NCBI GenBank assembly: GCA_963666485.2
Contig: CAXXUO010000003.1
Span: 160,001 to 224,000 of the forward strand
Direction: 5' to 3'
Source of the DNA: Syntrophorhabdaceae bacterium
Lineage (GTDB): Bacteria > Desulfobacterota > Syntrophorhabdia > Syntrophorhabdales > Syntrophorhabdaceae
Length of the DNA stretch: 64,000 nucleotides
In this document: positions 18,079 to 50,700 of the stretch, in pieces
How positions within the stretch are numbered: position 1 is the first letter of the stretch
Layout of the letters: every line of letters begins with the position of its first letter
The notes under the pieces: generated by a model
What the model saw: only the letters and a program-made list of their open reading frames with translations
The model's database searches: none
What the model was told of the DNA's origin: nothing
Made by a program: the position numbers and the translations under genes

Positions 18079-19437
18079 GATAGTGTCAAGAATCTTTCGC
18101 ACTTTCCATAGCAACCCCACTAATCCGGTTATGCCTTAATGCTCTCGATGATCTCCTGCTCAAGCCGGTCCATTTTCAGGTACTGGCTCATTCCCCATTT
18201 GGTTCCCGCTATGTGCCTTAGCCGGGCAGCCACGAGCATGAGTGCCGACCTGCCGTCAGGGAACGACCCGACGACCCGTGTGCGCCGTCTGATCTCCTTC
18301 ATGATCCGCTCCAGGGGGTTGTTGGTCCTGATCCTCCTCCAGTGCTCGCGGGGGAACCCGTAATAGCCGAGCGTCTCGTGGATCCCCTCGTTCAGCATGT
18401 CCGCGGCCCTGCCGAGTTTCATCTCCTTGAGCTTCTTCACCACCGCCTCCGCTTTCTTCTGCGCTTCTTTCCTGTCCTCCTGGGCATGGATCGCCGTGAG
18501 CATGGCGACGACCTCCTTGATCTTCCCCCTGGGCACGACGGTGAACACGTTCCGGTAGAAGTGGACAACGCACCTCTGCCATGAGGCGTCGGGGTAGAAC
18601 AGGGCGAGACTCTCGACGAGGCCCAGGCACTTGTCGGATATGAAGAGCTCCACACCCTTGAGCCCGCGCTCTTTGAGGTAGCGCAGGAAGGATGTCCAGC
18701 TGTCCTTGTCCTCCCGCGCACCCTCGGCCACACCCAGGATCTCCCGGTAGCCTTCGCGGTTCACCCCTATCGCTACAAGGACCGATACGCTCCTGACCTC
18801 CCCGCCCCAGGTCCTCTTGAGCGCTATCCCGTCGAGGTAGACGTAGGGATGCTCACCTTCGATGGGGCTTAATCTCCACTGCTCGATCGTGGTGTATATC
18901 TTTGCGTTGAGGTTCGAGACGGTGCCGGGGCTCACCTTCGTGCCCCAGAGGGCCTCCGTGATGTCCTCGACCCTCCTTACCGACACCCCGGCCAGGTACA
19001 TCTCGACGAGGGCCTCTTCCACGGATGATTCCCTTCTTTTGTACCGTTCGATGATCGCGGTCTCGAAGGGAAGCGACCTCAGCTTGGGCATCTTGATGTC
19101 CACCTCCCCCGCCTTCGTCTGGAGGGTTCGGGTATAATGGCCCGCCCGTGTGTCCCTGCGTTCCTCCGTGCGCTCGTACCTCTGTGCGTTGCACAGGCGG
19201 GACGCCTCTTCATCGAGAAGTGCATTGAGCGTCTCCTGCACCGTTCCCCTTACGATCTCTCCCAGGTGGTCCTTTATCTGCGCCTCATTAATCTGGATTA
19301 TCGTGCCGCCTTCTGTGGTAGACTCTTTCTGGGCCATGGTTCTTCCTCCCTCTGGTTTTTGTTTTGTGTGGTGCTTAACACTACCAGATTCGAGGTTGCC
19401 ATGGCTCTTAAATGTGCGAAAAATATTTTACGTTATC
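18079..19437 (-). mobile_element. IS256-family insertion sequence, copy 1 (1359 bp)
   Basis: Imperfect terminal IRs GATAACGTAAAATATTTTTCGCAC / GATAGTGTCAAGAATCTTTCGCAC; 8-bp TSD GTATGGCG at 18071-18078 and 19438-19445. Confidence 0.95.
18129..19337 (-). CDS. IS256-family (Mutator) transposase
   Basis: YLAGVSVR, YLDG, ISD, QRCVVHFYRN, RTNNPLER motifs. Confidence 0.95.
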   Translation of the reverse strand: MAQKESTTEGGTIIQINEAQIKDHLGEIVRGTVQETLNALLDEEASRLCNAQRYERTEERRDTRAGHYTRTLQTKAGEVDIKMPKLRSLPFETAIIERYKRRESSVEEALVEMYLAGVSVRRVEDITEALWGTKVSPGTVSNLNAKIYTTIEQWRLSPIEGEHPYVYLDGIALKRTWGGEVRSVSVLVAIGVNREGYREILGVAEGAREDKDSWTSFLRYLKERGLKGVELFISDKCLGLVESLALFYPDASWQRCVVHFYRNVFTVVPRGKIKEVVAMLTAIHAQEDRKEAQKKAEAVVKKLKEMKLGRAADMLNEGIHETLGYYGFPREHWRRIRTNNPLERIMKEIRRRTRVVGSFPDGRSALMLVAARLRHIAGTKWGMSQYLKMDRLEQEIIESIKA

Positions 19438-35751: not shown

Positions 35752-38700
35752 CTACGCGTCAAGCACCTTCCGAACCCTCAGAAGCAACTCGTTGACTGAA
35801 AGTGGTTTGGATATGAAATCGAAACTTCCGTCTTCAATCCCTTTATCAAGGACTATGTCTCGGGTGTATCCGCTGGTAAAGATCACCTTGATGCGAGGGT
35901 TCATTCCATGCATCTCTTCATAAGTCTCACGCCCGTTCTTTCTGGGCATTACGGAATCAAGGATGACGAGATCTATACCCGGGTGCTGTCTGAACTTCTC
36001 TATTGCGTCTTCACCATCAACCGATTCAATAGTCTTGTAGCCGTATCTGTCAAGCATATCCCGAATAAGAGTCCTCACAGGTTCATCGTCTTCAGCAATA
36101 AGGATTATCTCATTTCCCGTTACAACTGCAACCGATTCATCTTCTTTTTGATCTACCGCTGCATTGACCGAAGGAAGATAGATGCGGAAGGTGGTTCCAC
36201 GTCCTGGCTCGCTGTAGACGTTGACAAATCCGTTGTGCTGTTTGACTATACCGTAGACGGTGGCAAGACCGAGGCCCGTACCTTTTCCAGTTTCTTTGGT
36301 GGTAAAGAAAGGATCGAAAATCTTCTCAAGAATAGTTTCGTTCATCCCGACGCCCGTATCTGAGATACTTATCAGCACGTACCTCCCCGGATCTCCGTAT
36401 CCGTGCGCATCAACGAATCCTGAGTCGATATTGGCGATGGACGTTTCGATAACGATCATCCCGCCTTTCGGCATGGCGTCCCGCGCATTGGCCGCAAGAT
36501 TGAAGAGGACCTGGTCGATCTGTGACCTGTCTGCCATGACAATGGTATCTTCCCGGGTAAGGTTCATGCACAGTTCGATGTCTTCCGTCAGCAGCCTCTT
36601 GAGCAGTTTCTGCGTCGCCTCTATCGTCTCGTTTATGTTAAGAGAGACAAGGTCAACGGGCTGCTTCCTGCTGAACGTCAGCAGGTTCTGGGTAAGGTCA
36701 GCCGCTTTCTGGGAAGCGAGGATGATCTGGTCTACATATGGTTTCAGGGAACTGTCGCTCTTCGCTTTCATCTGTACGAGGGTGGCGTATCCCATGAGAG
36801 CGGTGAGGATATTATTGAAGTCATGTGCTATGCCGCCAGCCAGAGTCCCCACAGACTCCATCTTCTGGGCGTGGCGGAGACTTGACTCAAGATGCCTCAA
36901 TTGGGTAATGTCCTCGCAGGTTACCAGATAATCACGGGAAGCAATTAGAGAACTGCTAAAACTAACAATCTTCTGCGTTCCATCCTTGCAGGTGATGGTG
37001 AATATCCTCTTGTTCTGCGTTCCGGGCTTGATGTTTTCCACGTCTTCCGCCCAGACCGACATGACATTTCTCCTGTAGGACTCGTTCGGAAATGCTTTGC
37101 TGAACCACGTCTCGTTATCGGGGACATCGGACAGATAATAGCCGAAAAGTTCGGTGAACTTGTCATTGATATAGGTAATCTTCCCCTCGTCATTGACAAG
37201 AACCATCCCGAAGGGGGCACTGTCAGAAAGGGTCCGCAGCCTCTCCCTCTCTCTGGCGATCTCTTCCTGGGCCAGTCTGCGCTCGGTAATGTCCACACAG
37301 ATACCTTCGTAATAGAGGACTTTCCCGGATGAATCGAAGGCGGCCCGTGAATTGACTGAGACCCAGAATTTCGTATGGTCCTTACGGTATATCTGGGTCT
37401 CAAAATCAACTGCTGTCCCTTGTTTCCCTATTGTTTCTGTAAATCGTTCCCGTTCCTCGGGGTCCACGTAATGCTGTTGTTTGATATCGGTGATACTTGA
37501 GATCATCTCTTCGGGGGATTCATAGCCGCACATCTTTGCCATCGTAGGATTGACGTCGATGAACCGCCCTTCCGGCGCTGACTGGAAAATGCCTTCTACG
37601 GCATTCTCAAAGATATTCCTGTATTTTTGCTCGCTCTTAACCAGTGCGGCCTCTTTTTCCTTTATATCTGTGATATCATGTCCTTCCGCACTCAGGTAGA
37701 CGATCTCCCCTGTTTCGTTCCTTGACGGTCTGAGGGGAAAAATCAATCTGACGGATAACGCCGTCTCCACTGACATGGGTTGTTTCGAATCCTACAGACT
37801 TGCCCTTGGATACCTTTATTATGGCATCTCTCACTCTGTCCTGCTCCCTTCGTGAATGAGACCACCAGGGCGTTTCCCAGAACGGTTTTTCCGATCACGT
37901 CGGATTCGGTTTGCCCGACAAAATCAAGGGCTACCTTGTTCGCGATCACGACCCTGCCTTCAGTGTCCAGAAGCCCCATGAACTGAAAAGTCTGGTCAAA
38001 AACAGTGTTCAGCATCTCTTCGGAAGCGCGAAGCCGCATCTCAGCTCTCTTGCGTTCCGTAATGTCGCTCGCGCAACCCTGGAACCCGATGATCTTGCCG
38101 GCGTCATCCGTCAAGGGCACAGCGTTCGTAACATGCCAGCGGCATGAGCCGTCAGCATGGCAGAACACGGTATTCGATACCCGTTTGCCGCTCGCCCGTT
38201 TCAATCGTCGTCTTCAGGAAAGCTTCATACTTTTCAACATCTTCTGGATGGACGAACTGATGGAAGGACTTTCCGGCAGCCTCACGTGCAGGGTATCCGA
38301 TGAGCAGATCAAAGCTTGGTGAGACAAAAGTGAAGATTCCTTCGGGGGTAAGGGTATAGCGGACATCGTGGCTGTTCTCGACGAGCAAACGGTATTTCTC
38401 TTCACTGCTCCTGATATCCGCTTCCGTGGTTTTCTGCTCAATAAGCTTGCCCAGCCTTCGCGCTATGGCGTCAATGAGGTTTCTTTCTTCTTTCAGAAAT
38501 GGGTCCTCGGCGCATGTAAGCATATCCTCAAGATAGAATGTTTCAACGGCGCCGATAAGCTTTTCCCGGGATATGATACTGGCGGCAAGTTTGGAGGAGG
38601 TTTCCTTGAAGTTGTCTGTCCTGAATTCCTGGATTCCGTAGATGATACGGCTGCAGGCAACGTCGGAATGCTGCCGGGCCCCGGGGCAGGAGATTTACGA

Positions 38701-38929
38701 TACCTTGAAGGACCTCATCCAGGGTAATGCGAGGTTCATTAACAATGCTTGCTATCCCGTAAAGACAACTAAGTTCCTTTGCACGCTCACGGAGATCATG
38801 TTCCTGTTTTCGAATTGTTTCTTTCAGACCATTAATCTCGGCTTGCAGCGCCTCAACGTTAGCGGGCCCGTTTCGCGTGACCTCGGGTTCGCCGATGGGC
38901 CGACTTTCGGTTTCATTCTTATTGTTCAT
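35752..38929 (-). pseudogene. Multi-PAS hybrid histidine kinase split by about four +1 frameshifts
   Basis: ORFs 38543-38929, 38152-38523, 37743-38204 and 35752-37776 chain into GAF-like/PAS repeats, GGIAHDFNN, HATPase and REC. Confidence 0.85.
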
Positions 38930-39500
38930 ATGAACAGTCTCATATATTTATCGGCTATATGATGGAAAGTATATACCCTTTCATTGCTTTTTGCACAAGC
39001 TGGTTATATCGGGGGAGATTTCTGAAAATTCCGCCCACTTTTTTGAGAAGCATTTTTGTACGGGAAGGAGACGGAAACCGGGGGAAAGAGCCCCGGCTGG
39101 AAATAGGGTGGCACCAGAGGCCTCACCGGGAAAAAATGCTTTCTAACGTGAACCTTGGACCAATTGGTTAAGAGCCAACTGCCGGACAATTTTCTATTGA
39201 AAGACCAAAAATTGTTGACACTTTTGTTTTTACGGACACAGTTCTTTGAAAAGGGGTATAGGGGGGTCCGGAGTAAGGATTCCTTTTTTTGCCATGAAGG
39301 GATCATATCGGGGGTGACGGTATCGACGGCAGATAATTTTCGTTTATGTGAATACGGTTGGGATAAACGGTCCCCCGTGGGGTTCCATTTGGTTTTCAGG
39401 GGTGTAGGGGGGGGTCGGTATAAAAGAATTCTTTTGGATGGATGGGTTTTTGTTTTGATGGATACGGACAGCATGACTGGGGTTAAAGTCTACCCACCCT

Positions 39501-40145
39501 GTTGTTGGTGGCATCGCTTCAAACGATACCGTTACCGATATCGGGGTTATTATCGACGATCAAGGCGAACCTTGGTGGGTAGCGAAGGATGTGTGTGAGG
39601 TTCTTGAGCTAAAGAACCACAAAAAAGCCGTCACCGCCCTCGATAAAGATGAGGTAACTTTAACTTACCTCATAGACTCTATAGGAAGGAGGCAAGAAAC
39701 CCTTATCATCAACGAGCCTGGCCTTTATCGCCTTATCATGCGGAGTCGGAAAAAAGAGGCTCTTGAATTTCAACGGTGGGTTTTTCATGAGGTTTTGCCT
39801 CAGATCAGGAGAACGGGGCATTGGGGGTTTCCCCTTTTCCATCGTTTAAAACGATAGTATTTTTTTCGTCGGTATCGAGCCATGAAATAGTATCAAGGGT
39901 GTCAATCGGTTTGACCCCCTTCCATTGCTCTGGAACGTGGTTTGTCCTTGCGGATCTCTGTGCGATACTGGAGATAGGAAATCCCTCTGATGTTGCCAAA
40001 AGACCTGACCAGGATGACCTCGATACTGTCGAGGTCATAGACTCAATAGGGCGAAAACAAAGGGTAAATGCGGTAAATAAATTTGATGATGACGAAAAGG
40101 GTATAACTTCAAGTTACACCCTTGGCGGTGAACAAGATATGTTGG
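39501..40145. other. Mosaic of Bro-N (phage antirepressor) gene fragments, each centred on a DNA palindrome
   Basis: EPWWVAKDVCEVL...INEPGLYRLIMRSRK...FQRWV plus five shorter homologous pieces on both strands; palindromes centred at 39520, 39661, 39848, 39908, 40026 and 40110. Confidence 0.8.
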
Positions 40146-40159
40146 GCCAGCCATAGCGC

Positions 40160-40321
40160 TTAGTCTTCTTGGGGTTCCAGGTCGTTGATGAATCTCTCGA
40201 TCTCCGACTCTTTAAATAGCGTACGGCCCCCGAGCTTGACGTGTTTGATTTCGCCAGCCGACATGAGTCTATAAAGATTTGCTTTGGATATCTTTAATAA
40301 ACCCATCGTATCGTTTATCAA
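40160..40321 (-). CDS. Excisionase-like HTH_17 DNA-binding protein (53 aa; TTG start or 5'-truncated)
   Basis: LLKISKANLYRLMSAGEIKHVKLGGRTLFKESEIERFI. Confidence 0.72.
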   Translation of the reverse strand: MINDTMGLLKISKANLYRLMSAGEIKHVKLGGRTLFKESEIERFINDLEPQED

Positions 40322-40342
40322 GACATGGTCAGAGGAGACATC

Positions 40343-41026
40343 ATGGAAGGCAAGTTCATAGGCTATCTCAGGGTATCCACGACAAAGCAGGGAGATTCAG
40401 GGCTTGGTATTGAAGCACAACGTAAAGCAATGACCGATTACCTCAATGGGGGGAAGTGGAACCTCCTGAGGGAGTTTGTCGAGATTGAATCAGGCAAACG
40501 TGATGACAACAGACCAAAACTTAATGAGGCATTGCAGGCTTGCAAGAGGACTAAGGCAACTCTCTTGATAGCCAAGCTTGACCGACTCTCAAGGAATGTC
40601 ACCTTCATCTCATCCCTTATGGATTCCGACATTGAATTCGTAGCCTGTGATTTTCCCCATGCTAATAAGCTAACCGTCCATATATTGGCAGCAGTGGCGC
40701 AACATGAGCGTGAGATGATAAGCAAAAGAACGAAGGAAGCGTTGCAGGCAGCAAAGGCAAGGGGCGTTAAGCTTGGAAGCCCTGTAGGGTTGTCTGAGGA
40801 GGCTATAAAGAACGGTGTGCGGAAGTCTCGGGAGGTTAGGATAGCCAAGGCAAACGAGCACGCTGAAAGGATACATGGGATTATCAAAGGGTATCAGAGT
40901 GAAGGCCTGTCGCTACGTGCTGTTGCGCGGAAACTCACAGAGGAAGGCGAACTGACCCCAAGAGGGAAGGATTGCAAATGGACACCGACAACGGTCAAAA
41001 ACGTGTTGAAGAGAGTGGAGGAGTAA
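40343..41026 (+). CDS. Serine recombinase (resolvase/invertase family with C-terminal recombinase-type HTH)
   Basis: GYLRVST, IAKLDRLSRN, EREMISKRTK...ARGVKLG, WTPTTVKNVL; GAGGAG RBS. Confidence 0.92.
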   Translation: MEGKFIGYLRVSTTKQGDSGLGIEAQRKAMTDYLNGGKWNLLREFVEIESGKRDDNRPKLNEALQACKRTKATLLIAKLDRLSRNVTFISSLMDSDIEFVACDFPHANKLTVHILAAVAQHEREMISKRTKEALQAAKARGVKLGSPVGLSEEAIKNGVRKSREVRIAKANEHAERIHGIIKGYQSEGLSLRAVARKLTEEGELTPRGKDCKWTPTTVKNVLKRVEE

Positions 41027-41229
41027 AATAGGAGCTTTCCTTCTTTCGTGTGGGAGCAGGCATCTGTTTTTTTGTAATACTCTTGACAATACTTGCACTG
41101 CACTCGTATCATCATGTTACACAATAAAGATTTGGGAAGTGTTATTAGGGCACAATGTGGTTTGGAGGGTATCATAGGTGTCATCGATTTTGTGGCTCCT
41201 CAGTGATTCTTTAATCTTTGGTTTTTCGA

Positions 41230-42009
41230 ATGAACGACAATAGAAAAAGCCCCAGCGGTAACACGTCACTTGTCTTGTATAATCAATCGAATGGTGTTTG
41301 TCCGATATGCGGTCGACCTTTGATGTATGAAAAAAGTGGCCGCAAGCACAAAGGTTTTCAAGCAGCGCATATATATCCTAATAGTCCAACGAAGGCAGAA
41401 GAGGAGCTCCTCAAGGATGAAGAACGATTAAGTTTAGATGTCAATCATGAGGCCAACTTAGTCCCGTTGTGCCTTGTTTGCCATGGAAGGTTTGACAAAC
41501 CACGCACAGTGCCTGAATACAGAGAGCTAGTGTCTGTAAAGAAAACACTGCAGAAGCAGGCAGAAGAAAGGGAATTGTGGTATGAATACAATCTTGAAAG
41601 CGATATTCGTCAGATTATTGAAACATTGAGTAATCTTGAAGAAACAGATGATGAATGTAAATCTCAATTTTCATATGATGTCAGGAAAGTTGACCAAAAA
41701 ACAGATGCTTCACTTTCCAACCTCACTAAACAAAAAATCAAAACCAATGTTCGTTATTATTTTAATGAGGTAAGGAAAACGTTTGCTGCCGTAGATTCAG
41801 AGAAGCTAAATACTGCTAATATCATCGCATCTCAAGTTAAGATATATTATTTAAAACAAAAGCAGAAAAAATTTAGCCAACAAGAAATATATGATAATTG
41901 CGTAAAATGGATTGATGCTAAGACAAAACATCGGTCTTCCGACGCGTGCGAAATCATTGTCTCGTTCTTTATACAGAATTGCGAGGTATTTGATGATAAC
42001 CCCAAGTAA
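41230..42009 (+). CDS. HNH endonuclease fused to an ABC three-component C-terminal domain (Lamassu LmuA-like effector)
   Basis: CPIC...AAHIYP...NLVPLCLVCH...D HNH motif; ends IIVSFFIQNCEVF. Confidence 0.8.
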   Translation: MNDNRKSPSGNTSLVLYNQSNGVCPICGRPLMYEKSGRKHKGFQAAHIYPNSPTKAEEELLKDEERLSLDVNHEANLVPLCLVCHGRFDKPRTVPEYRELVSVKKTLQKQAEERELWYEYNLESDIRQIIETLSNLEETDDECKSQFSYDVRKVDQKTDASLSNLTKQKIKTNVRYYFNEVRKTFAAVDSEKLNTANIIASQVKIYYLKQKQKKFSQQEIYDNCVKWIDAKTKHRSSDACEIIVSFFIQNCEVFDDNPK

Positions 42010-42235
42010 GTTCACTCCCTTAGAAAAATCCGTAATTTTCAAAATGATTTATCTATTGGAACCTGAATTTCACGGTAAGGAGATGAAAATCGTTGAATTG
42101 TATCGGAAGGTTGAAAAGAAATTTACTGGCATAGACGAATTCATATACTCAATTGATATTCTGTATATTCTAGGTTATGCCGATGTTGATTTTGCCAGAG
42201 GAGTGTTGAGGTATGCTCACAGAGATAATATGTGA
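41993..42235 (+). CDS. ABC three-component middle component (LmuC-like)
   Basis: MITPSKF...ELYRKV...EFIYSIDILYILG, 80 aa, overlapping both neighbours. Confidence 0.75.
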   Translation: MITPSKFTPLEKSVIFKMIYLLEPEFHGKEMKIVELYRKVEKKFTGIDEFIYSIDILYILGYADVDFARGVLRYAHRDNM

Positions 42236-43820
42236 TAAGTTCAGAACCAAGAAGATTACATTTCACGACAGCCTCAATGTGATTCTTGGGGACGAACGAG
42301 CAACTAATTCGATTGGCAAGTCAACCCTACTCATGATTATTGATTTCGTTTTTGGTGGTAAGACTCTGCTAACGTACAATATTGATATCATTAATGAACT
42401 AGGTCATCATGAGTATTGTTTTGCTTTCACATTTGGAGAAACAGTGCGTAAGTTTAAGCGGAGTACTCAGGATGGAGACTTGGTTTACCAGTGTGACGAA
42501 GACTATACTCCAGTAGACTCTATCAGATTGGACGATTATACTGCGTTACTAAAAACAATGTACGGAATTTCCCTGCCTTACCTGTCATTCAGAGCGGCGG
42601 TGAGTCTGTTTTCTAGAATCTGGGGTAAGGGTAATATAAACGTAACTAGACCGTTGCATGCAATTGCGGCTCAAAGGAGCCTTGATGCCGTAAACAATCT
42701 AATAAAATTGTTCAACGAGTATTCGTCAATAGAGAAATTAACCATAGATGCCAAGGATGCGGATGAGTCATTGTCGGTGCTTAAGAAAGCTCTTAAACGT
42801 TCATATTTACCCAGGATATCAAGTCGACAGTATAACGACAACGTTGAACTTATTAATAGATGCAACAATGAGTTGTCGGAGATTCGGGATAATTTGGCTA
42901 GATTCGCTACGAATATTAAGGAGATTTCAAATAGAGAACTTGTGGATTTGAAACAAAAGAAAGACGATTTGTTGCCCATAAAGCTAAAGCTGGAAAACAG
43001 ACTGAAACGAATTAAAAACAATCTAGACGAGGGAAAATATCTCAAAAGCAAACAGCTGTACAGATTAATGGAATTCTTTCCAAACATCAATATTAAAAGA
43101 CTCTCAGAGATTGAAGAATTTCATGCGGGGCTTAGTAAAATATTGAGGGACGAATTGCGAATTTCAGAAAAGAATCTTGCCCATCAGCTTGAAGACCTAA
43201 ATACTGCCCTTGACGGGATAGATAAAGAAATGGCGACCGTGCTATCATCGATAGACAATCCAAACGCTATCATTGATAGGGTCTATCATCTCACAAGCCT
43301 GATAAGGAGAGCTGAGAACGAGAATGGTCATTTTATTGAACGCGAAAAAGCACATGAACAAGCAGATGAATTACGCTCTCGGTTAAAAGGAGAAAGAACA
43401 GAAATTGTCTCATCCATCAGTGAACGACTGAATAGCAGAATGCGAGATATTACGTCGTTGGTTTATTCAGAGAAACGAAAAAGTCCTGTTCTCAAGTTGT
43501 CAGACGACAATTATGCATTTGAAGTGTATGAAGATACGGGTACTGGAAAGGCCTATTCTAACTTGGTTATTCTCGATTTAGCGGTATTGGAGATGACCGA
43601 GTTGCCTTTCCTCATTCACGATTCGCTTCTATTCAAAAATATCGAAAACAATGCAGTAAGCAATATCGTTCTAAGGTATGGAGACGAACAGAGACAGTCA
43701 TTCATTGCGATAGATGAAATTGGCAAATACGGTCAGATTATTTCTGATTATCTGAAACGAAAAAGTGTTATTGAACTGGACAATGATAACGTACTGTTCG
43801 TTAAAGATTGGAGGGTATGA
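42213..43820 (+). CDS. SMC-like ABC ATPase, DUF2326 type (LmuB-like)
   Basis: NSIGKST Walker A, long coiled coil, DTGTG signature, FLIHDS Walker B. Confidence 0.85.
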   Translation: MLTEIICDKFRTKKITFHDSLNVILGDERATNSIGKSTLLMIIDFVFGGKTLLTYNIDIINELGHHEYCFAFTFGETVRKFKRSTQDGDLVYQCDEDYTPVDSIRLDDYTALLKTMYGISLPYLSFRAAVSLFSRIWGKGNINVTRPLHAIAAQRSLDAVNNLIKLFNEYSSIEKLTIDAKDADESLSVLKKALKRSYLPRISSRQYNDNVELINRCNNELSEIRDNLARFATNIKEISNRELVDLKQKKDDLLPIKLKLENRLKRIKNNLDEGKYLKSKQLYRLMEFFPNINIKRLSEIEEFHAGLSKILRDELRISEKNLAHQLEDLNTALDGIDKEMATVLSSIDNPNAIIDRVYHLTSLIRRAENENGHFIEREKAHEQADELRSRLKGERTEIVSSISERLNSRMRDITSLVYSEKRKSPVLKLSDDNYAFEVYEDTGTGKAYSNLVILDLAVLEMTELPFLIHDSLLFKNIENNAVSNIVLRYGDEQRQSFIAIDEIGKYGQIISDYLKRKSVIELDNDNVLFVKDWRV

Positions 43821-43912
43821 CCTTAGCCAAGGACACCAGAAAGTTAGGACTACGGCAATCCACCGATGGTTAACGTTCGGAACAATAATCTTGATGAAGG
43901 GATAAGGAAATT

Positions 43913-44764
43913 ATGAAGTCTACACGAAATGATGCGGATACCGTTAAGACGGTCGACAAGAGGTGGATATACGTGTCGTTTTCATGCGTAACTCTTCTCT
44001 GGGCAGCATCTTTATTGCTTATTCCGATATTCAAAGAGCACAATGAACGAGGCGCTTTCGGAGATATGTTTGGGGCAGTTAACGCTCTTTTTTCTGGTCT
44101 TGCCTTCGCTGGAATTATCATTAGTATTCTTCTGCAGAATAAGGAACTCAAGTTGCAGCGCGAGGAACTTGAACAAACAAGAGATGAACTGAAAGGTCAA
44201 AAGGAACAGCTCCAAAATCAAAATCTGACCATGAATCGACAAAGATTTGAAAATACTTTTTTTCAGTTACTCCGTAATCACCGAGATATCGTTAACAGCA
44301 TGGACATCAGGCGTAAGACTGAAGTCATATCAGCAGGTTCTGATTGTTTCAAGACATTCTATTCCGAATTCCTCAGCAGAACAGGCCCAACAAGTGACAT
44401 CGAGAGTGTATTAGGGGCATATTTAGAATTCTACTGGAAAAGGCAACAGGATTTAGGGCACTATTTCAGGAACCTGTATCACGTAGTTAGGTTTATAGAC
44501 GATTCGAAAGATATAGATAACGAAGAAAGATTCCTTTACTCACGTCTATTAAGGGCATTATTATCAAGTAATGAATTGGTGTTGCTTTTCTACAATGGTC
44601 TTAGCAAATTCGGAAGAGACAGTTTTAAGCCGTTAATCGAGAAGTATTCGCTTTTGAAAAATATGGAGGATTCATTATTAATATCTATGGCCCATAGGAA
44701 AGAATACAGTAAATTTGCCTTTGCGAGCTCCAGAGAACGAGCTGAATGGGGCAATGGCTCGTAG
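43913..44764 (+). CDS. Putative phage abortive infection protein (two TMs + coiled coil)
   Basis: GAFGDMFGAVNALFSGLAF...QRFENTFFQLL...GHYFRNLYH...RALLSSNELVLLFYN. Confidence 0.78.
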   Translation: MKSTRNDADTVKTVDKRWIYVSFSCVTLLWAASLLLIPIFKEHNERGAFGDMFGAVNALFSGLAFAGIIISILLQNKELKLQREELEQTRDELKGQKEQLQNQNLTMNRQRFENTFFQLLRNHRDIVNSMDIRRKTEVISAGSDCFKTFYSEFLSRTGPTSDIESVLGAYLEFYWKRQQDLGHYFRNLYHVVRFIDDSKDIDNEERFLYSRLLRALLSSNELVLLFYNGLSKFGRDSFKPLIEKYSLLKNMEDSLLISMAHRKEYSKFAFASSRERAEWGNGS

Positions 44765-44909
44765 TCTCAAAGTTTATCGCAATTCACCTTACAGGCATTT
44801 AACGAATAGTTACATGGAATAATAAGTACGCATTTTAGTACACACGATAGCGGGTGTGAGACTGACTGTCAAACGTGATGTTTTGAAAAGCTTAATAAGT
44901 TAAGGTGGT

Positions 44910-46268
44910 GATAACGTAAAATATTTTTCGCACATTTAAGAGCCATGGCAACCTCGAATCTGGTAGTGTTAAGCACCACACAAAACAAAAACCAGAGGGA
45001 GGAAGAACCATGGCCCAGAAAGAGTCTACCACAGAAGGCGGCACGATAATCCAGATTAATGAGGCGCAGATAAAGGACCACCTGGGAGAGATCGTAAGGG
45101 GAACGGTGCAGGAGACGCTCAATGCACTTCTCGATGAAGAGGCGTCCCGCCTGTGCAACGCACAGAGGTACGAGCGCACGGAGGAACGCAGGGACACACG
45201 GGCGGGCCATTATACCCGAACCCTCCAGACGAAGGCGGGGGAGGTGGACATCAAGATGCCCAAGCTGAGGTCGCTTCCCTTCGAGACCGCGATCATCGAA
45301 CGGTACAAAAGAAGGGAATCATCCGTGGAAGAGGCCCTCGTCGAGATGTACCTGGCCGGGGTGTCGGTAAGGAGGGTCGAGGACATCACGGAGGCCCTCT
45401 GGGGCACGAAGGTGAGCCCCGGCACCGTCTCGAACCTCAACGCAAAGATATACACCACGATCGAGCAGTGGAGATTAAGCCCCATCGAAGGTGAGCATCC
45501 CTACGTCTACCTCGACGGGATAGCGCTCAAGAGGACCTGGGGCGGGGAGGTCAGGAGCGTATCGGTCCTTGTAGCGATAGGGGTGAACCGCGAAGGCTAC
45601 CGGGAGATCCTGGGTGTGGCCGAGGGTGCGCGGGAGGACAAGGACAGCTGGACATCCTTCCTGCGCTACCTCAAAGAGCGCGGGCTCAAGGGTGTGGAGC
45701 TCTTCATATCCGACAAGTGCCTGGGCCTCGTCGAGAGTCTCGCCCTGTTCTACCCCGACGCCTCATGGCAGAGGTGCGTTGTCCACTTCTACCGGAACGT
45801 GTTCACCGTCGTGCCCAGGGGGAAGATCAAGGAGGTCGTCGCCATGCTCACGGCGATCCATGCCCAGGAGGACAGGAAAGAAGCGCAGAAGAAAGCGGAG
45901 GCGGTGGTGAAGAAGCTCAAGGAGATGAAACTCGGCAGGGCCGCGGACATGCTGAACGAGGGGATCCACGAGACGCTCGGCTATTACGGGTTCCCCCGCG
46001 AGCACTGGAGGAGGATCAGGACCAACAACCCCCTGGAGCGGATCATGAAGGAGATCAGACGGCGCACACGGGTCGTCGGGTCGTTCCCTGACGGCAGGTC
46101 GGCACTCATGCTCGTGGCTGCCCGGCTAAGGCACATAGCGGGAACCAAATGGGGAATGAGCCAGTACCTGAAAATGGACCGGCTTGAGCAGGAGATCATC
46201 GAGAGCATTAAGGCATAACCGGATTAGTGGGGTTGCTATGGAAAGTGCGAAAGATTCTTGACACTATC
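44910..46268 (+). mobile_element. IS256-family insertion sequence, copy 2 (1359 bp)
   Basis: Same termini as copy 1; 8-bp TSD AAGGTGGT at 44902-44909 and 46269-46276. Confidence 0.95.
45010..46218 (+). CDS. IS256-family transposase
   Basis: Protein identical to 18129-19337. Confidence 0.95.
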   Translation: MAQKESTTEGGTIIQINEAQIKDHLGEIVRGTVQETLNALLDEEASRLCNAQRYERTEERRDTRAGHYTRTLQTKAGEVDIKMPKLRSLPFETAIIERYKRRESSVEEALVEMYLAGVSVRRVEDITEALWGTKVSPGTVSNLNAKIYTTIEQWRLSPIEGEHPYVYLDGIALKRTWGGEVRSVSVLVAIGVNREGYREILGVAEGAREDKDSWTSFLRYLKERGLKGVELFISDKCLGLVESLALFYPDASWQRCVVHFYRNVFTVVPRGKIKEVVAMLTAIHAQEDRKEAQKKAEAVVKKLKEMKLGRAADMLNEGIHETLGYYGFPREHWRRIRTNNPLERIMKEIRRRTRVVGSFPDGRSALMLVAARLRHIAGTKWGMSQYLKMDRLEQEIIESIKA

Positions 46269-46529
46269 AAGGTGGTTAGCGGTCTGGCGGGATGCTATTC
46301 GGAGCGTCCTACTTCCTCCGCCATATTCCCCCAACAATGTCAAGCATAATGACTCTCCAAAATGTGTATCATTTGTGTATTTCTGCTGAGGGCTCATCCA
46401 AGAATAATTTATCTCAACGCTCCTTAAAATAAGTCTGTACTGACAATAAATCTTTTGAAAGTGTCCCAGTAAAATACATGGACAGATCCTCTTAGAAAGA
46501 TTATACTGAGCGCCGTTAATCTTACCGTT

Positions 46530-46800
46530 CTCGTCCGGCGCCCTGTCCGTCGACCAGAGACATTTTTGTCGTGTCGATTCAAAGCCGGGTGCTGTCGGTA
46601 TGCTGCAGCGGTTCAATGATATGGGGCTTGATCAGATTGTCGTCCATGACCAGGCAGTCATCATTACGGCATACCTCAGCTTCCTCTCTTGGCCAAGAAG
46701 GTCGAAGTCTGTCTTTCTGACGATCTTCTCGGGATTCTCCAATCCGACAGCACGTGCAAACTGCAAATTGCATCCCAGAGAATAATCCGTGCGCCTTGTG
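46530..46800 (-). pseudogene. PAS-domain remnant
   Basis: Across a frameshift and stop: LGCNLQFARAVGLENPEKIVRKTDFDL/WPREEAEVCRNDDCLVM...HIIEPLQ. Confidence 0.6.
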
Positions 46801-46844
46801 CTGCTTTTCTCTACAGCCAGGATATATACATGATTCCCTCATTG

Positions 46845-47009
46845 TCAATTATCGCCTGGTCCCTTCTCCGGATAAGGATCGCTTTCTTCCTTCTCTGGCA
46901 ACTTATTGCCCCAGTAGAGAATTCTTCGGCAACACGTGGCAACATAGCCCTTGCCAAATGGGATGACCGGCGCCATCCTGCCACATTTCGGACATTTAAT
47001 AGTTGCCAT
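46845..47009 (-). CDS. Cys-rich microprotein, copy 2 (54 aa)
   Basis: MATIKCPKC-GRMAPVIPFGKGYVAT-CCRRILYW...; not in the ORF track. Confidence 0.7.
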   Translation of the reverse strand: MATIKCPKCGRMAPVIPFGKGYVATCCRRILYWGNKLPEKEESDPYPEKGPGDN

Positions 47010-47253
47010 TTTCCCAGTCTATCACAAAAAGTCAGAAAGACAACGATAGGCTATTAATTTGATCGCGAAGATTACGATTCGCCCAACGTCCCCTATCCAT
47101 TGAAAAATGGTATGATATATATCCTGCAGTTCCATGCACGCCCGACAATAGGATCAAAAAATTACTCCGCCCCCCGATCACGGCTGATTCAACATGACAT
47201 CGATTAATTATTCGGGATAGTCCCTGTCATTGACAGACGGTTTCCCCGTGGGA

Positions 47254-47379
47254 TTATGCCCTTATATAACAAACCCCTACAAACCTACCCCCGAATGGGA
47301 CGATCGTGATATCACGGTTACACAACTGACAGGTAATGACGCCTTTTTCTTGTTCTTTTTGTCTGCAGTCCCACATCAT
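47254..47379 (-). CDS. Cys-rich microprotein, copy 3 (41 aa, possibly decayed)
   Basis: ITCQLC-NRDITIVPFGGRFVGV-CY; upstream region resembles that of copy 1. Confidence 0.55.
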   Translation of the reverse strand: MMWDCRQKEQEKGVITCQLCNRDITIVPFGGRFVGVCYIRA

Positions 47380-47537
47380 AACCCCCTGATCTAGAAAAAA
47401 GTATACCATTGCCCGGGGGTTGATAAAATCATGGGACATATATAATCTGATCGACATCGCTGCTTTTATTGCGAAAAAATACATATTTTCCGGTTATTAT
47501 GTTTCATATGTTTTGTAAAATGACAGGAACTCAGAAA

Positions 47538-47696
47538 TTAGTCGGACTCTTCTGCCTGATTCTCGACTTCCGCTGGCGGTTCTCTCATCTCGGATCTAAA
47601 ATATAACACGCAATTACAGCACGACGCCATATAACCGTGTTCGCACTTCTTAAGCGGGACTTCCCTCCCGCAATCGGGACATATGAAGTTGTGCAT
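47538..47696 (-). CDS. Cys-rich microprotein, copy 4 (52 aa)
   Basis: MHNFICPDC-GREVPLKKCEHGYMAS-CCNCVLYF...; GAGGAGG RBS; not in the ORF track. Confidence 0.7.
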   Translation of the reverse strand: MHNFICPDCGREVPLKKCEHGYMASCCNCVLYFRSEMREPPAEVENQAEESD

Positions 47697-47820
47697 AGAA
47701 GAACCTCCTCTTCGGTGAGGTAGATATAAAATGCCCGCGTCAGCCAGATGAGACCCGCTTTCCAGGATCGATCATACCATGACAACACGGGTGAAACCAT
47801 TTAAAGAATGATACGGTAAC

Positions 47821-50700
47821 TTATCCTTCCAGGACATCGCGGATGGCAACAGAAAGTTCGTGTCGGGTTAGGGGCTTCGTGAGAAATTGCTTTATACCGG
47901 CTTTTTTGACAACCTCGGGAGAGACGATCGGGCTGTGTCCGGTGCAGAGTATTATGGGGATATCCGGCCTAATTTCGAGACATTTTTTTGCGAGTTGCAT
48001 TCCCGACATTGTGGGCATAGCCTGATCCGTGATAACGAGATCAAAGTGAAGAGGGTTGGACGAAAACATCATTATCGCTTCATTAGGGTCATTTATCGCA
48101 GTAACATGATATCCTATCTTTTCGAGCGTAATCTGAGCCCATTGCACAAGCATATCCTCATCATCGATAAAGAGGATTTTTTCGGTGCCTGTCATTATCT
48201 GGCCAGGTACTCCATCTTTTGCTGCTTTCTCCTTTGCCTTGGGAAGAAAAACCCGAAACGTCGAACCGCCTCCAAGCTTACTCTCTATCGTTATCTCCCC
48301 CTGGAGATCGCTTACGATTCCATATACGACGGCTAATCCCATGCCTGTTCCTTCACCCTGTTCTCGCGTGGTAAAGAATGGTTCAAAGACACGCCTCATC
48401 ACTTCGGAGCTCATCCCTATTCCTGTGTCCTTCACCATAAGCTGGATATATTCTGCAGGCACAGTTTTGTCAACGACGGATGCATCGGACATCAGTCCGG
48501 CATCAGTCAGATGGATCTCCAGGACACCCCCCTTTTCTGACATCGCGAGAGAAGCATTTGTCGCCAAATTCATTACTATTTGTTGTATTTCTGTTGGGGC
48601 CGCACGCACCACATCGGATTCTGCCGTAGTCTTCAATGTTATCTCGATCGAGGCGGGGATAGAGGCTCTGATAAGCTTTACTGTTTCCTCAACGATGGGC
48701 CAGATTGCAATATGTGTTCTTTCATAGCTTGCCTTCCTCGAGAAAGCAAGGATCTGCTTCACTAGTTCCCGTGCCCGTATGGCTGATACTATGACGCGCT
48801 GAAGGTTTTTCTTAACCAACGGTCGGTCGGACACATCCTCTATAGACATCTCGGTAAAGCCGATGATGGCAGCTAGGATATTGTTGAAATCGTGGGCAAT
48901 GCCCCCGGCGAGAGTGCCTATGGCTTCCATCTTCTGGGACTGACGGAGATTCTCTTCAAGACGATGTTGTTCGTCTTCTGCCATCTTTCGGTCGATGATG
49001 TCCGCGGCCAGTCGGGCTAGGATGTCAATAACCCGCATTTCACGGGAAGAAGGAGTATGCACCTTTTGGAAATGTGTGGATAACATGCCCACAACATTGC
49101 CCCGTCGTGTGACCAACGGGGTTGACTGAACCGCGTGTATTCCTTCTTTCAACAATACCTCCAGAGCGGTATTGCTGAAGATATTGCTTTTTGAGACATC
49201 TTCTATGATTACCCGTTCCATGCGCCCTAGCGCCGTACCGCATGCAGCCTCTCCACCTTCAACAGAATCGAAAAATGTCAGAAAACGTTGGCTAAAGTAC
49301 CTGTGGGCCACTATCTTAAGCTCTTTCGAGGAAGGATCGAGAAGTTGCATGTTCCCTTTATCAGAATTCGTGATCGCTATGGCCGCATCCACTATTTCCT
49401 GGAAGAGAGACTCGGTAACCTCCCCTGCGAGATACTTTCTGCTTAATCCGTGAAGAAGATTGAAATCTTTGACCTCCGCATCAAGCAGCATGGTTCGTTC
49501 TTCAAGCTCAGCTGTTCGTTCCTTAACACGTTCTTCAAGAACATGCTCACTCTTTAATAGGGCCTCCTCCATTTTGGCGCGCTCAGTTACATCATTTGCG
49601 TATATACGAATTGACTCAAATTCCGAAATAAGCTGCACAGTTTCCGTATAGACCTTGTCATTAATAGAAATTTGGCGATAAAAGGTGCCTGATTCGCCTT
49701 TCTTCAATCGCTGAAGGAGATGATGTATATCCTCGGGGAGAAAAGGCGAGCAATCATCTCGATCCATTCCATTGCTTTCGAGAGTTTTTTGCGCCCCGAG
49801 ATTACAAAACATAACTTTACCAGATGACGCTATTTCTATCACAGGATTCGGATTGAATTTAGGGAATGAGGCAAGGCGTAAATTCCGACTTTCACTTGCT
49901 CGAAGAGCTTCCTGGGTATTCTTGAGGTCTGTAATATCGTTTCCGATGGCAAGGACCTCTACTAATTTACCCTTGTCATCAAATACCGGGTTATTCGTCC
50001 AGGATATCCACGCGCGGTTTCCATCCTTACATATATTTTCATTAATATTGTTGAGATACTGTTCCGGATATTCAGTAATATCCTGAACCAAGCGGGACAA
50101 ATCATTTCCGAGAGAATCCCGGTCCGGCACCAAGATACTCACACTCTTGCCGATCAATTCTCGTGGCTTATATCCAAAGAACATAAGGCCGTAGCGATTC
50201 ATGAAACTGATCTTGCCATCAGCTTTCCAGCGGACAATAACGCTATTAACATTTTCTACCAATTCGCGGTATTTCTTTGTGCTGCGCCTGAGACTTCTTT
50301 CGGCGCGTACACGACGCGTGATTTCATGCACGGTGAGAACGAACCCTGTGATTGCTTTATCACTTTGCACTGGATACCAGTACATATCCCAGTATCGTTT
50401 GATTTTAGGATCTACCGCATAATGGCCATTGAATTGATGGCGAACAGGCTTCCCCGTTTTAATAATCTGTCCAACAATCTTCTCTATTGCAGGGAATAAG
50501 TCCGGTACAAACTTGCTAACATGTTTACCTATATGGTCAGCAACGGGCCTTCCATCGAACTTGGCCAGCTCTTCGTTGATCAAGATATAATTCAAATTTC
50601 GATCTAAGCTCGCAAAACCAGCCGAAGTGTTTCCGAGTAATAGATCTAAGATCAAGGATTTGTGCATATTTACATTATCGGATTTACGGCCGGCCATCAA
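47821..50700 (-). CDS. PAS/GAF hybrid sensor histidine kinase
   Basis: PAS repeats, GAF (AVQSTPL), [18 protein letters not shown]. Confidence 0.9.
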   Translation of the reverse strand: MMAGRKSDNVNMHKSLILDLLLGNTSAGFASLDRNLNYILINEELAKFDGRPVADHIGKHVSKFVPDLFPAIEKIVGQIIKTGKPVRHQFNGHYAVDPKIKRYWDMYWYPVQSDKAITGFVLTVHEITRRVRAERSLRRSTKKYRELVENVNSVIVRWKADGKISFMNRYGLMFFGYKPRELIGKSVSILVPDRDSLGNDLSRLVQDITEYPEQYLNNINENICKDGNRAWISWTNNPVFDDKGKLVEVLAIGNDITDLKNTQEALRASESRNLRLASFPKFNPNPVIEIASSGKVMFCNLGAQKTLESNGMDRDDCSPFLPEDIHHLLQRLKKGESGTFYRQISINDKVYTETVQLISEFESIRIYANDVTERAKMEEALLKSEHVLEERVKERTAELEERTMLLDAEVKDFNLLHGLSRKYLAGEVTESLFQEIVDAAIAITNSDKGNMQLLDPSSKELKIVAHRYFSQRFLTFFDSVEGGEAACGTALGRMERVIIEDVSKSNIFSNTALEVLLKEGIHAVQSTPLVTRRGNVVGMLSTHFQKVHTPSSREMRVIDILARLAADIIDRKMAEDEQHRLEENLRQSQKMEAIGTLAGGIAHDFNNILAAIIGFTEMSIEDVSDRPLVKKNLQRVIVSAIRARELVKQILAFSRKASYERTHIAIWPIVEETVKLIRASIPASIEITLKTTAESDVVRAAPTEIQQIVMNLATNASLAMSEKGGVLEIHLTDAGLMSDASVVDKTVPAEYIQLMVKDTGIGMSSEVMRRVFEPFFTTREQGEGTGMGLAVVYGIVSDLQGEITIESKLGGGSTFRVFLPKAKEKAAKDGVPGQIMTGTEKILFIDDEDMLVQWAQITLEKIGYHVTAINDPNEAIMMFSSNPLHFDLVITDQAMPTMSGMQLAKKCLEIRPDIPIILCTGHSPIVSPEVVKKAGIKQFLTKPLTRHELSVAIRDVLEG

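Follow-up and report, generated by a model that had tools for sequence, protein, structure and literature searches.

Serine invertases of the Gin, Hin, Pin and Min type have recombination sites with a shared core and a 2-bp centre. The bro genes of baculoviruses lie near hr palindromes and have been linked to palindromic DNA and genome rearrangement. Both can be compared with the locus analyzed here, an array of Bro-N gene pieces with palindromes in their reading frames. It is located at positions 39504-40153 of a 64,000-nt stretch (contig CAXXUO010000003.1, assembly GCA_963666485.2) of a Syntrophorhabdaceae bacterium; this whole stretch is called the window in the following. An earlier prediction, made from the DNA letters of the stretch, had proposed the array as a candidate capture or diversification system. 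Like the invertase systems, the window has a small serine recombinase gene adjoining several coding dyad sites in both orientations. However, its sites have an odd centre and no sequence in common, a constant expressed part of a gene is missing, and homologues of the recombinase are not associated with such arrays (0 of 86 loci). The baculovirus bro genes belong to the same domain family, but hr elements are non-coding repeats beside the genes, whereas the Bro-N dyad lies inside the reading frame.

In Saccharomyces cerevisiae coding genes, template switching is reported to homogenise the arms of inverted repeats and to invert their spacers (PMC8604942). There, as in Bro-N genes, in-gene arms change together, and the resulting multi-nucleotide non-synonymous change mimics selection. 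The yeast events are recent and spread over 39 unrelated genes, whereas the Bro-N dyad is a fixed 27-bp feature of one family found across phyla and phages. Template switching was also described to create and maintain hairpin stems (PMC8794818), with perfect stems and compensatory changes that need no selection for each intermediate. That work was on RNA genes with a functional stem; in contrast, the Bro-N dyad lies in a protein-coding strand, is paired up to the centre and shows no G.U bias. Perfect inverted repeats inside functional protein-coding genes are also known from nematomorph mitochondria, where they are described as a compromise between DNA structure and protein sequence (PMC6649704). 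Those repeats reach 284 bp, are numerous per genome and lineage-specific and have conserved regions in both arms. Bro-N genes, in contrast, carry one short dyad per gene in a variable segment, at a position conserved across the family. No paper describing the Bro-N coding dyad was found in a literature search, which had most subscription journals outside its coverage.

A DNA dyad in the Bro-N coding sequence

For the comparison across the family, 160 Bro-N relatives with DNA were used, 80 from viral contigs and 80 from genome contigs of Actinomycetota, Bacillota, Pseudomonadota, Bacteroidota, cyanobacteria and others. The conserved NE.GLY motif served as the anchor, and 142 distinct loci had a single unambiguous one. 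Palindromes were scored as 27-mers of 13+1+13 nt, counting the paired positions out of 13. A palindrome with at least 9 matched pairs is present within the 105 nt before NE.GLY in 91 of the 142 loci. The 27-bp dyad is a property of nearly the whole Bro-N clade and not of the array locus. The original prediction was right that palindromy is kept while the sequence varies, but this is no hallmark of the array, being found clade-wide in the 142 loci. Since the dyad is clade-wide in Bro-N genes, it is the DNA symmetry that needs explaining and not the adjacent recombinase.

The position of the dyad falls into classes. Among the 99 loci whose best palindrome in the 315-nt segment scores at least 8, the centre, counted in nt before the E codon of the anchor motif, lies at -44 in 56, at -53 in 20 and at -47 in 6 loci. 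The -44 class reads 'DEK-G[VI]xxxxT[LP]-GGxQ' with the ends AAGGGT...ACCCTT and includes three of the six palindromes of the window (P4, P6 and P1, Table 1). The -53 class reads 'D[ED]xxxxx[VL]I-DSIGRxQ' with the ends GATGAG...CTCATC and includes P2 and P5, and P3 is the window member of a third class, 'DEK-NTxxLxxG'. The inner arms vary from locus to locus, with changes matched on both sides, as in KGVSLIDTL, KGTNIIGTL, KGITTSNTL, KGLHSMETL and KGAETIRTL. Six named phages were checked for the dyad at the expected spot. It is present in four (Anoxybacillus A403, Pseudomonas YMC11/02/R656, Staphylococcus phiPV83 and Lactococcus 53802) and absent there in Mycobacterium Tweety and Vibrio ICP1. 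In total, 1250 phage records contain a relative of piece B of the array, with 284 Mycobacterium and 229 Staphylococcus phage records among them.

The symmetry is kept at the level of DNA. A score of at least 9 was observed in 70 of the 142 loci, compared with a mean of 1.95 and a maximum of 4 loci after synonymous resampling (pooled codon usage, 20 replicates), so that palindromy is indeed above codon-shuffled controls, the comparison that the original prediction had called for. Scores of at least 12 occur in 13 loci and in none after resampling. At least 10 pairs were counted in 48 loci at the dyad segment and in only 2 and 0 loci in N-terminal and C-terminal stretches of equal length, respectively. 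The dyad is a DNA-level feature, and the complementarity of its arms exceeds what the amino acids require. In 66 sequences of the -44 class, 87.2% of the cells are paired against 61.4% in shuffled sequences (none of 500 shuffles reached 87.2%) and 32-42% with slid partners. These 66 rows had been picked by their best palindrome at that centre, for which the synonymous resampling is the unselected control. Changes on both sides prevail by 198 cells to 52, and all 13 pairs vary on both sides. Pairing spans distances 1-13 from the centre and drops abruptly at 14-15.

Three simple sources of the symmetry were tried and rejected. A hairpin of the sense RNA was set aside as G.T mismatches are not more frequent than A.C mismatches (29 vs 59, or 27 vs 27 once the two outer positions are left out) and the pairing goes down to the innermost pair, which is complementary in 92% of the -44 class and which no hairpin can form. 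Symmetry of the protein does not account for the signal either, because synonymous resampling removes it. In an AlphaFold model of piece B (predicted local distance difference test score 87.3) the P2 peptide corresponds to residues 47-55, mostly in a strand (49-55) that is predicted to be the first strand of the central beta-hairpin of the domain, with the turn DSIGR. P2 would encode mostly this one strand and not a hairpin of its own. No solved structure was found by a sequence search. The third candidate was an auxiliary operator of a phage repressor. In the 2.5-4 kb fetched on each side of the dyad, a second copy with at least 20/27 identity was found in only 2 of 67 loci, and at 17-19/27 there was no excess over cross-locus controls (67 loci). 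The suggestion that the pieces are operators or decoys captured from invading phages is not borne out by the same search, as 65 of the 67 loci have no second similar palindrome within these flanks, the place at which one would look for a set of operators.

Strong in-frame 27-nt palindromes were also seen in genes adjoining Bro-N, at L150 4990-5016, L060 2435-2461 and L071 3122-3148 (L numbers denote the fetched loci). The one in L150 encodes NEFDLNEVV directly before an LYLWTEKG motif and perhaps occupies the corresponding position of a related DNA-binding domain.

The patchwork of Bro-N pieces in the window

The pieces were resolved by six-frame translation of 39477-40158, a Pfam scan and a clade profile built from 42 members, and were compared by tblastn with 163 fetched Bro-N loci. 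Positions 39504-40153 form a contiguous Bro-N patchwork, in which the widest unassigned gap is 13 nt (Table 1). Piece B is the only one with a PF02498 score above the cut-off (E 2e-26, 92.9 bits against 25.6, profile positions 3-96) and the sole PF02498 match of the whole genome. It covers positions 13-110 of the clade hidden Markov model (HMM; E 6.8e-54), and its top tblastn relative is L107 (59%). Piece E covers clade HMM positions 26-73 (E 8.9e-12) and matches L082 at 60% (E 5e-13); its Pfam score of 16.5 bits (E 0.014) is under the 25.6-bit cut-off. Piece F matches the clade HMM weakly (44-69, E 0.69) and is most similar to L118 (56%, E 3e-6) and L125, with 56-62% identity and E values of 3e-6 to 2e-5. 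The HMM match of piece D is also weak (44-65, E 3.8), and its tblastn match is L048 (60%, E 1e-4). Pieces A and C are too short for testing (E 0.04 or worse). A has no significant tblastn match, and for C, which reads KGVNRFDPL on the plus and KGVKPIDTL on the minus strand, the homology search was not significant.

The top tblastn relatives of B, E, F and D belong to four different Bro-N lineages, and therefore these pieces are not copies of one gene, in line with the original prediction; among the palindromes, P1 and P3 are alike at 18 of 27 positions. Judged by their sequence, the pieces are dead and derive from at least four different Bro-N genes. Other parts of the first description need changes. 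Six pieces had been counted, of which B and E are strong and F and D weak, and A and C are little more than a palindrome. Two of them had been placed on the minus strand, which holds for D, but C is readable on either strand. The absence of start codons applies to B, whose frame has a stop at 39474 and then no in-frame start; however, the listing of open reading frames (ORFs) contains a TTG-started ORF at 39821-40156, which spans E and F, and a GTG ORF at 39591-39857 within B. Beyond the island, a search for the rest of a split Bro-N gene gave only spurious weak matches.

Table 1. Bro-N pieces, palindromes and neighbouring genes, with positions in the window. Pairs are counted out of 13.
Feature	Position	Strand	Description
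Piece A	39507-39533	+	GGIASNDT; little beyond its palindrome; runs in frame into B at the truncated start of the latter
Piece B	39531-39824	+	Near-complete Bro-N domain; first ~10 residues and in-frame start codon absent
Piece D	39894-39829	-	ISWLDTDEKNTIVLNDGKGETPN; 'DEK-NT..L..G..GNP' Bro-N class
Piece C	39895-39921	either	One 27-mer, exactly palindrome P4; wedged between D and E
Piece E	39935-40078	+	N-terminal half of a second Bro-N gene, WFVLADLC...DQDDLDTVEVIDSIGRKQRVNAVN; stops just before the E.GLY motif
Piece F	40079-40141 (HMM match 40067-40141)	+	FDDDEKGITSSYTLGGEQDML; third Bro-N gene, -44 class; in frame after E
P1	39507-39533	+	GGIASNDT; 8/13 pairs
P2	39648-39674	+	DEVTLTYLI; 11/13 pairs; centre 53 nt before the E codon of NEPGLY
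P3	39835-39861	-	NTIVLNDGK; 9/13 pairs; perfect 7+1+7 core; partly decayed
P4	39895-39921	either	Piece C; 11/13 pairs; AAGGGT...CCCTT ends typical of the -44 class
P5	40013-40039	+	DDLDTVEVI; -53 class; 11/13 pairs
P6	40097-40123	+	KGITSSYTL; 12/13 pairs
HTH_17 (excisionase-type) gene	40160-40321	-	PF12728 E 7.1e-12
Small serine recombinase gene	40325-41026	+	233 aa; PF00239 E 2.2e-29; PF07508 E 1.6e-7
Low-GC defence cargo	41218-44764	+	ABC-3C/PDC-M68 pair 41218-42009 and 42213-43820; AbiP/AbiC-like 43913-44764
IS256/Mutator-family transposase	45010-46218, also 18129-19337		PF00872 E 1e-108

The palindromes P2, P4, P5 and P6 far exceed chance expectation; the case for P3 is moderate and that for P1 weak. 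An inverted repeat had been reported in each piece, which stands for these four and with reservation for P3 (9/13); P1 by itself is within chance, at an estimated 0.3 such sites per 650 nt. In the whole window only 5 odd 27-mers have at least 11 of 13 pairs, and 4 of these are P2, P4, P5 and P6. In a looser count, 14 of 39 palindrome records lie in 630 bp, where 0.38 would be expected by length. A repeat search gave arms of 12 nt (92%) for P2 at 39649-39660/39662-39673, of 10 nt (100%, 5-nt spacer) for P5 at 40014-40023/40029-40038 and of 13 nt (92%) for P6 at 40097-40109/40111-40123. No common core was found among the six 27-mers, whose pairwise identity of 7-18/27 is highest within a class; P1 and P3 share 18 and P4 and P6 17-18 positions. 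The claim that the repeats are centred on the equivalent codon is true within a class but not across classes. P2 and P5 start at D-[ED], P4, P6 and P1 two codons later at K-G, and P3 one further. For P2, P6, P1 and P3 the centre is a stop on one strand, with the coding orientation plus, plus, plus and minus, respectively.

The assembled contigs of one sample (three runs) are identical to the window over the array stretch. In a low-depth assembly (X3) of the probable source sample, a contig break lies at 40100-40107, inside P6, which is probably an effect of the assembler. A second, weaker palindrome is present in B at 39596-39621 (13-nt arms, 85%) and encodes EVLELKNH; a few relatives have a palindrome near this place, with centres at -107 to -110. 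Scans for Rfam families and tRNAs, which covered 36000-48000 and the whole window, detected nothing near the array. A G-rich motif, GGGGTNTAGGGGGGTC.., located upstream of the array does not belong to a repeat family in the genome, where one extra loose match was found.

Proposed template switching and competing explanations

The symmetry of the dyad could be kept by template switching during replication, in which one arm would be copied from the other by fold-back or across the fork. Such copying would homogenise the arms, so that changes would appear on both sides at once, and the spacer would become inverted. Replication may also stall at the same fold-back-prone structure, and breakage, snap-back copying and illegitimate joining may follow from it. 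The palindrome and its surroundings would then collect the junctions of rearrangements and short copied patches in either orientation, and palindrome-centred scraps would survive as Bro-N-bearing phage DNA decays. We infer both parts, the maintaining process and the origin of the scraps, and give about an even chance to the reading that template switching keeps the dyad symmetrical and that the array is what errors of copying and joining, provoked by the palindromes, have left as debris in decayed mobile DNA.

A spacer inversion was observed. With near-identical arms, 36 pairs of loci were informative, and in 3 of them the 5-nt spacers are exact reverse complements (TCTGG vs CCAGA). Centre codons occur in both flip states, with ATT in 11 and AAT in 9 (I/N), CTG in 5 and CAG in 4 (L/Q) and ACT in 13 and AGT in 4 cases (T/S). 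Of 82 distinct strong Bro-N palindromes, 17 have TCA or TTA as the centre codon, which a flip of the centre would change to TGA or TAA; the centre codons of P2 (39660-39662) and P6 (40109-40111) are of this kind. Some pairs of loci share an identical 27-mer, and other pairs at about 80% flank identity have 6-10 dyad differences out of 27, largely in matched pairs. In these comparisons, change in the dyad is punctuated.

On this reading, the array is not a working system and consists of dead Bro-N pieces left in decayed mobile DNA. Its short pieces are no random stretches of a gene, as F and D, which were detected by the profile and not by the palindrome, both span profile positions 44-65/69 and C is exactly 27 nt long. 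Since the pattern also recurs elsewhere, stalling at the palindrome, fold-back copying and illegitimate joining are suggested as the origin of the array. Of the alternatives named in the original prediction, hairpin-driven illegitimate recombination is the one favoured here. The pieces abut, they lie in both orientations, and C is a 27-mer between D and E; similar scraps and palindrome-only copies are found beside unrelated Bro-N genes. In a Bacteroidales metagenome-assembled genome (L123, 2244-2733), an intact Bro-N gene is preceded, at a distance of 1.2-1.7 kb, by three scraps of different classes. The first partially copies the palindromic segment of this gene (80% identical, with an identical 27-mer), the second is a fragment of another class, and the third is a bare 27-mer (2707-2733) of a third class. 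Palindrome-only second copies occur at L111 3779-3805 (20/27, 327 nt upstream) and L141 3911-3937 (21/27, 207 nt upstream), and cross-locus controls gave none at 20/27 or more. A decayed, frameshifted Bro-N patchwork is also present in a relative of the same genus (G014; L020 2480-2915), in a different context adjoining a sigma-factor gene. The palindrome was also considered as a recombination breakpoint between genes; some pairs of loci change identity nearby, with no clear excess.

Several observations weigh against template switching and against this origin of the array. Of 132 strong 27-nt palindromes in 964 kb of DNA, mostly from phages, 77 fall within Bro-N matches, which make up an estimated 5% of the bases. 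Such an enrichment in one family is beyond purely neutral copying error and needs inheritance plus drive, or function. The dyad occurs in the registers -44, -47, -53, -37 and -31.5 within the same protein segment, as if palindromes had arisen repeatedly or had been selected for at any point of this segment. All 3 spacer-inverted pairs belong to one lineage and fit one or two events. In three pairs (L155/L161, L148/L166 and L063/L071) the 27-mer is 100% identical with flanks of 74-87% identity. 27-mers that outlast their flanks fit purifying selection; their change would also be slowed by the pairing of each third codon position with a first position. The changes in the dyad were compared pair by pair. 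Taken alone, neutral copying does not easily explain the family enrichment, the several registers and a dyad that is sometimes more conserved than its flanks. As for the array, the origin of the scraps is read from their anatomy alone, and simple microhomology between palindromes does not explain the joins, because the pieces are of different classes with different outer arms. Finally, no Bro-N piece (profile E up to 1) and no HTH_17 gene of the window type was found at 86 loci with a homologous recombinase (80 metagenomic and 6 viral), but many of these are contigs of 1-5 kb, which makes the absence weaker than the count suggests.

Some of these points would be expected if selection acted on the dyad as a DNA element. 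It might form a cruciform or hairpin that a structure-specific factor recognises, or serve as the binding site of a symmetric dimer, and the scraps would persist as decoys, sensors or recombination signals. The fixed position in the family with several independent registers, the estimated ~27-fold enrichment in Bro-N over neighbouring phage DNA and the identity of 27-mers where the flanks have diverged by 13-26% are in favour of such an element. The dead fragments of the window keep 11-12 of 13 pairs, compared with a per-position sum of ~10.9 in the -44 class, and bare 27-mers occur in two unrelated genomes (piece C of the window and L123 2707-2733). However, there is no known partner, and the sequences differ almost fully among loci, so that a sequence-specific binder would have to change with each gene. 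The version with an auxiliary operator failed (second site in 2 of 67 loci, no enrichment at 17-19/27). A hairpin could not use the innermost pair, which is paired in 92% of the -44 class, and there is no G.U signal for a hairpin of the sense RNA. In addition, the dyad is missing at its spot in 2 of the 6 named phages, and the array has no DNA-level counterpart in 40 relatives searched, in which the matches were limited to 71 nt of Bro-N sequence in G014 and a fragment of the recombinase in G005. Selection for a DNA element is regarded as rather unlikely, though to be kept in mind. A more specific form of it, in which the coding dyad is a functional structure-specific signal, as a cruciform or fold-back, that phages or their hosts use for recombination, replication restart or sensing, and in which chromosomal arrays of bare or barely flanked dyads, like the present one beside defence genes, are kept as decoys or as substrates for the capture of incoming Bro-N-bearing DNA, seems doubtful to us. 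In that case, flipping the centre would turn a sense codon into a stop in the 17 of 82 palindromes mentioned above.

Ordinary erosion of a tandem cluster of Bro-N paralogues in an old prophage, in which the palindromes merely made the pieces recognisable, is an equally improbable origin of the array. Phage loci with two adjacent Bro-N genes do exist (L042, L171, L175 and L185), A and C were recognised only by their palindromes, and the surroundings are cluttered with remnants, among them an IS256-family element, foreign cargo of low GC content and the conserved end of a repeat (33 nt). Yet no gap exceeds 13 nt, so there are no hidden non-palindrome pieces inside the array. That F and D both contain the 9-residue segment has an estimated probability of ~0.03 by chance, calculated for two random windows of 22-26 residues in a domain of 110 residues. 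Furthermore, erosion would not be expected to leave C with exactly 27 nt or to produce the same pattern in L123, L111 and L141.

A programmed system, in which the serine recombinase and HTH_17 swap or collect Bro-N cassettes at the palindromes, is very improbable: the two genes adjoin a dyad array in both orientations, L031/L061 and L034/L061 differ mainly in a patch around the palindrome and L123 carries a partial copy of the palindromic segment upstream of its intact gene, but a Bro-N piece or the HTH_17 gene of the window was seen at 0 of 86 recombinase loci and a weak recombinase match (24-28% identity) at only 2 of the 163 Bro-N loci, an intact Bro-N gene is missing from the genome, the sites have no common sequence and a single central base, and no flanking repeats were found.

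If the reading of template switching and debris is right, one of the commonest phage accessory families would carry a self-symmetrising DNA structure at a fixed codon position. The co-varying strand residues of Bro-N would then be a by-product of DNA symmetry and would not indicate positive selection or a specificity-determining loop. Palindrome-centred scraps beside a recombinase would be a recognisable type of scar and not cassette libraries or capture arrays. Template switching in phages and bacteria could also be measured with the dyad, which would be a natural substrate that is widespread and easy to assay. If, instead, the dyad is functional, it would represent a new class of intragenic signal common to well over a thousand sequenced phages.

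Neighbouring genes and genomic context

The array is followed by the HTH_17 gene, the serine recombinase, the low-GC ABC-3C/AbiC cargo and an IS256-family element, which are regarded as neighbours independent of it. The recombinase consists of a Resolvase domain and the start of a Recombinase domain. Its closest homologue, L187 (89% identical protein), has a different upstream gene, and the DNA similarity to the window starts only at 40308. This speaks against the library of donor cassettes that the original prediction had considered, as do the lack of an intact Bro-N recipient gene, the missing common core and the 86 recombinase loci, none of which adjoins an array of fragments. The HTH_17 gene of the window had no tblastn match in the 163 Bro-N loci or the 86 recombinase loci. 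No credible att-like repeats were found around 38800-47800, and no flanking repeats mark an integrated unit. In 19 relatives of the genus, the flanks of the array match only paralogous sensor-kinase genes and insertion sequence (IS) copies, and neither an empty site nor an orthologous array could be defined.

The defence cargo had been described as a Lamassu operon. By Pfam it contains CTD11, HNH_2 and DUF2326 (ABC-3C), with an HNH-CTD11 effector and a DUF2326 ABC ATPase, followed by putAbiC. PADLOC assigns the ATPase best to PDC-M68B (3.8e-16), the effector to PDC-M68A (9.4e-11) and the third gene to AbiP, so that the best match is PDC-M68A/B together with ABC-3C domains; the LmuB matches are weaker (1.4e-10 for the ATPase). 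The GC content of this cargo (41000-45000) is 35-42%, compared with ~47-50% around it. The IS256-family element is found three more times in the genome at 100% identity, once within the window. A 33-nt stretch at 39150-39182 recurs with 93-94% identity in 15 of 19 genus relatives and in one genome of another family. In the relatives it often lies within ~125 nt of a contig end, and it occurs once more in this genome (C10). It looks like the end of an IS or of another repeat.

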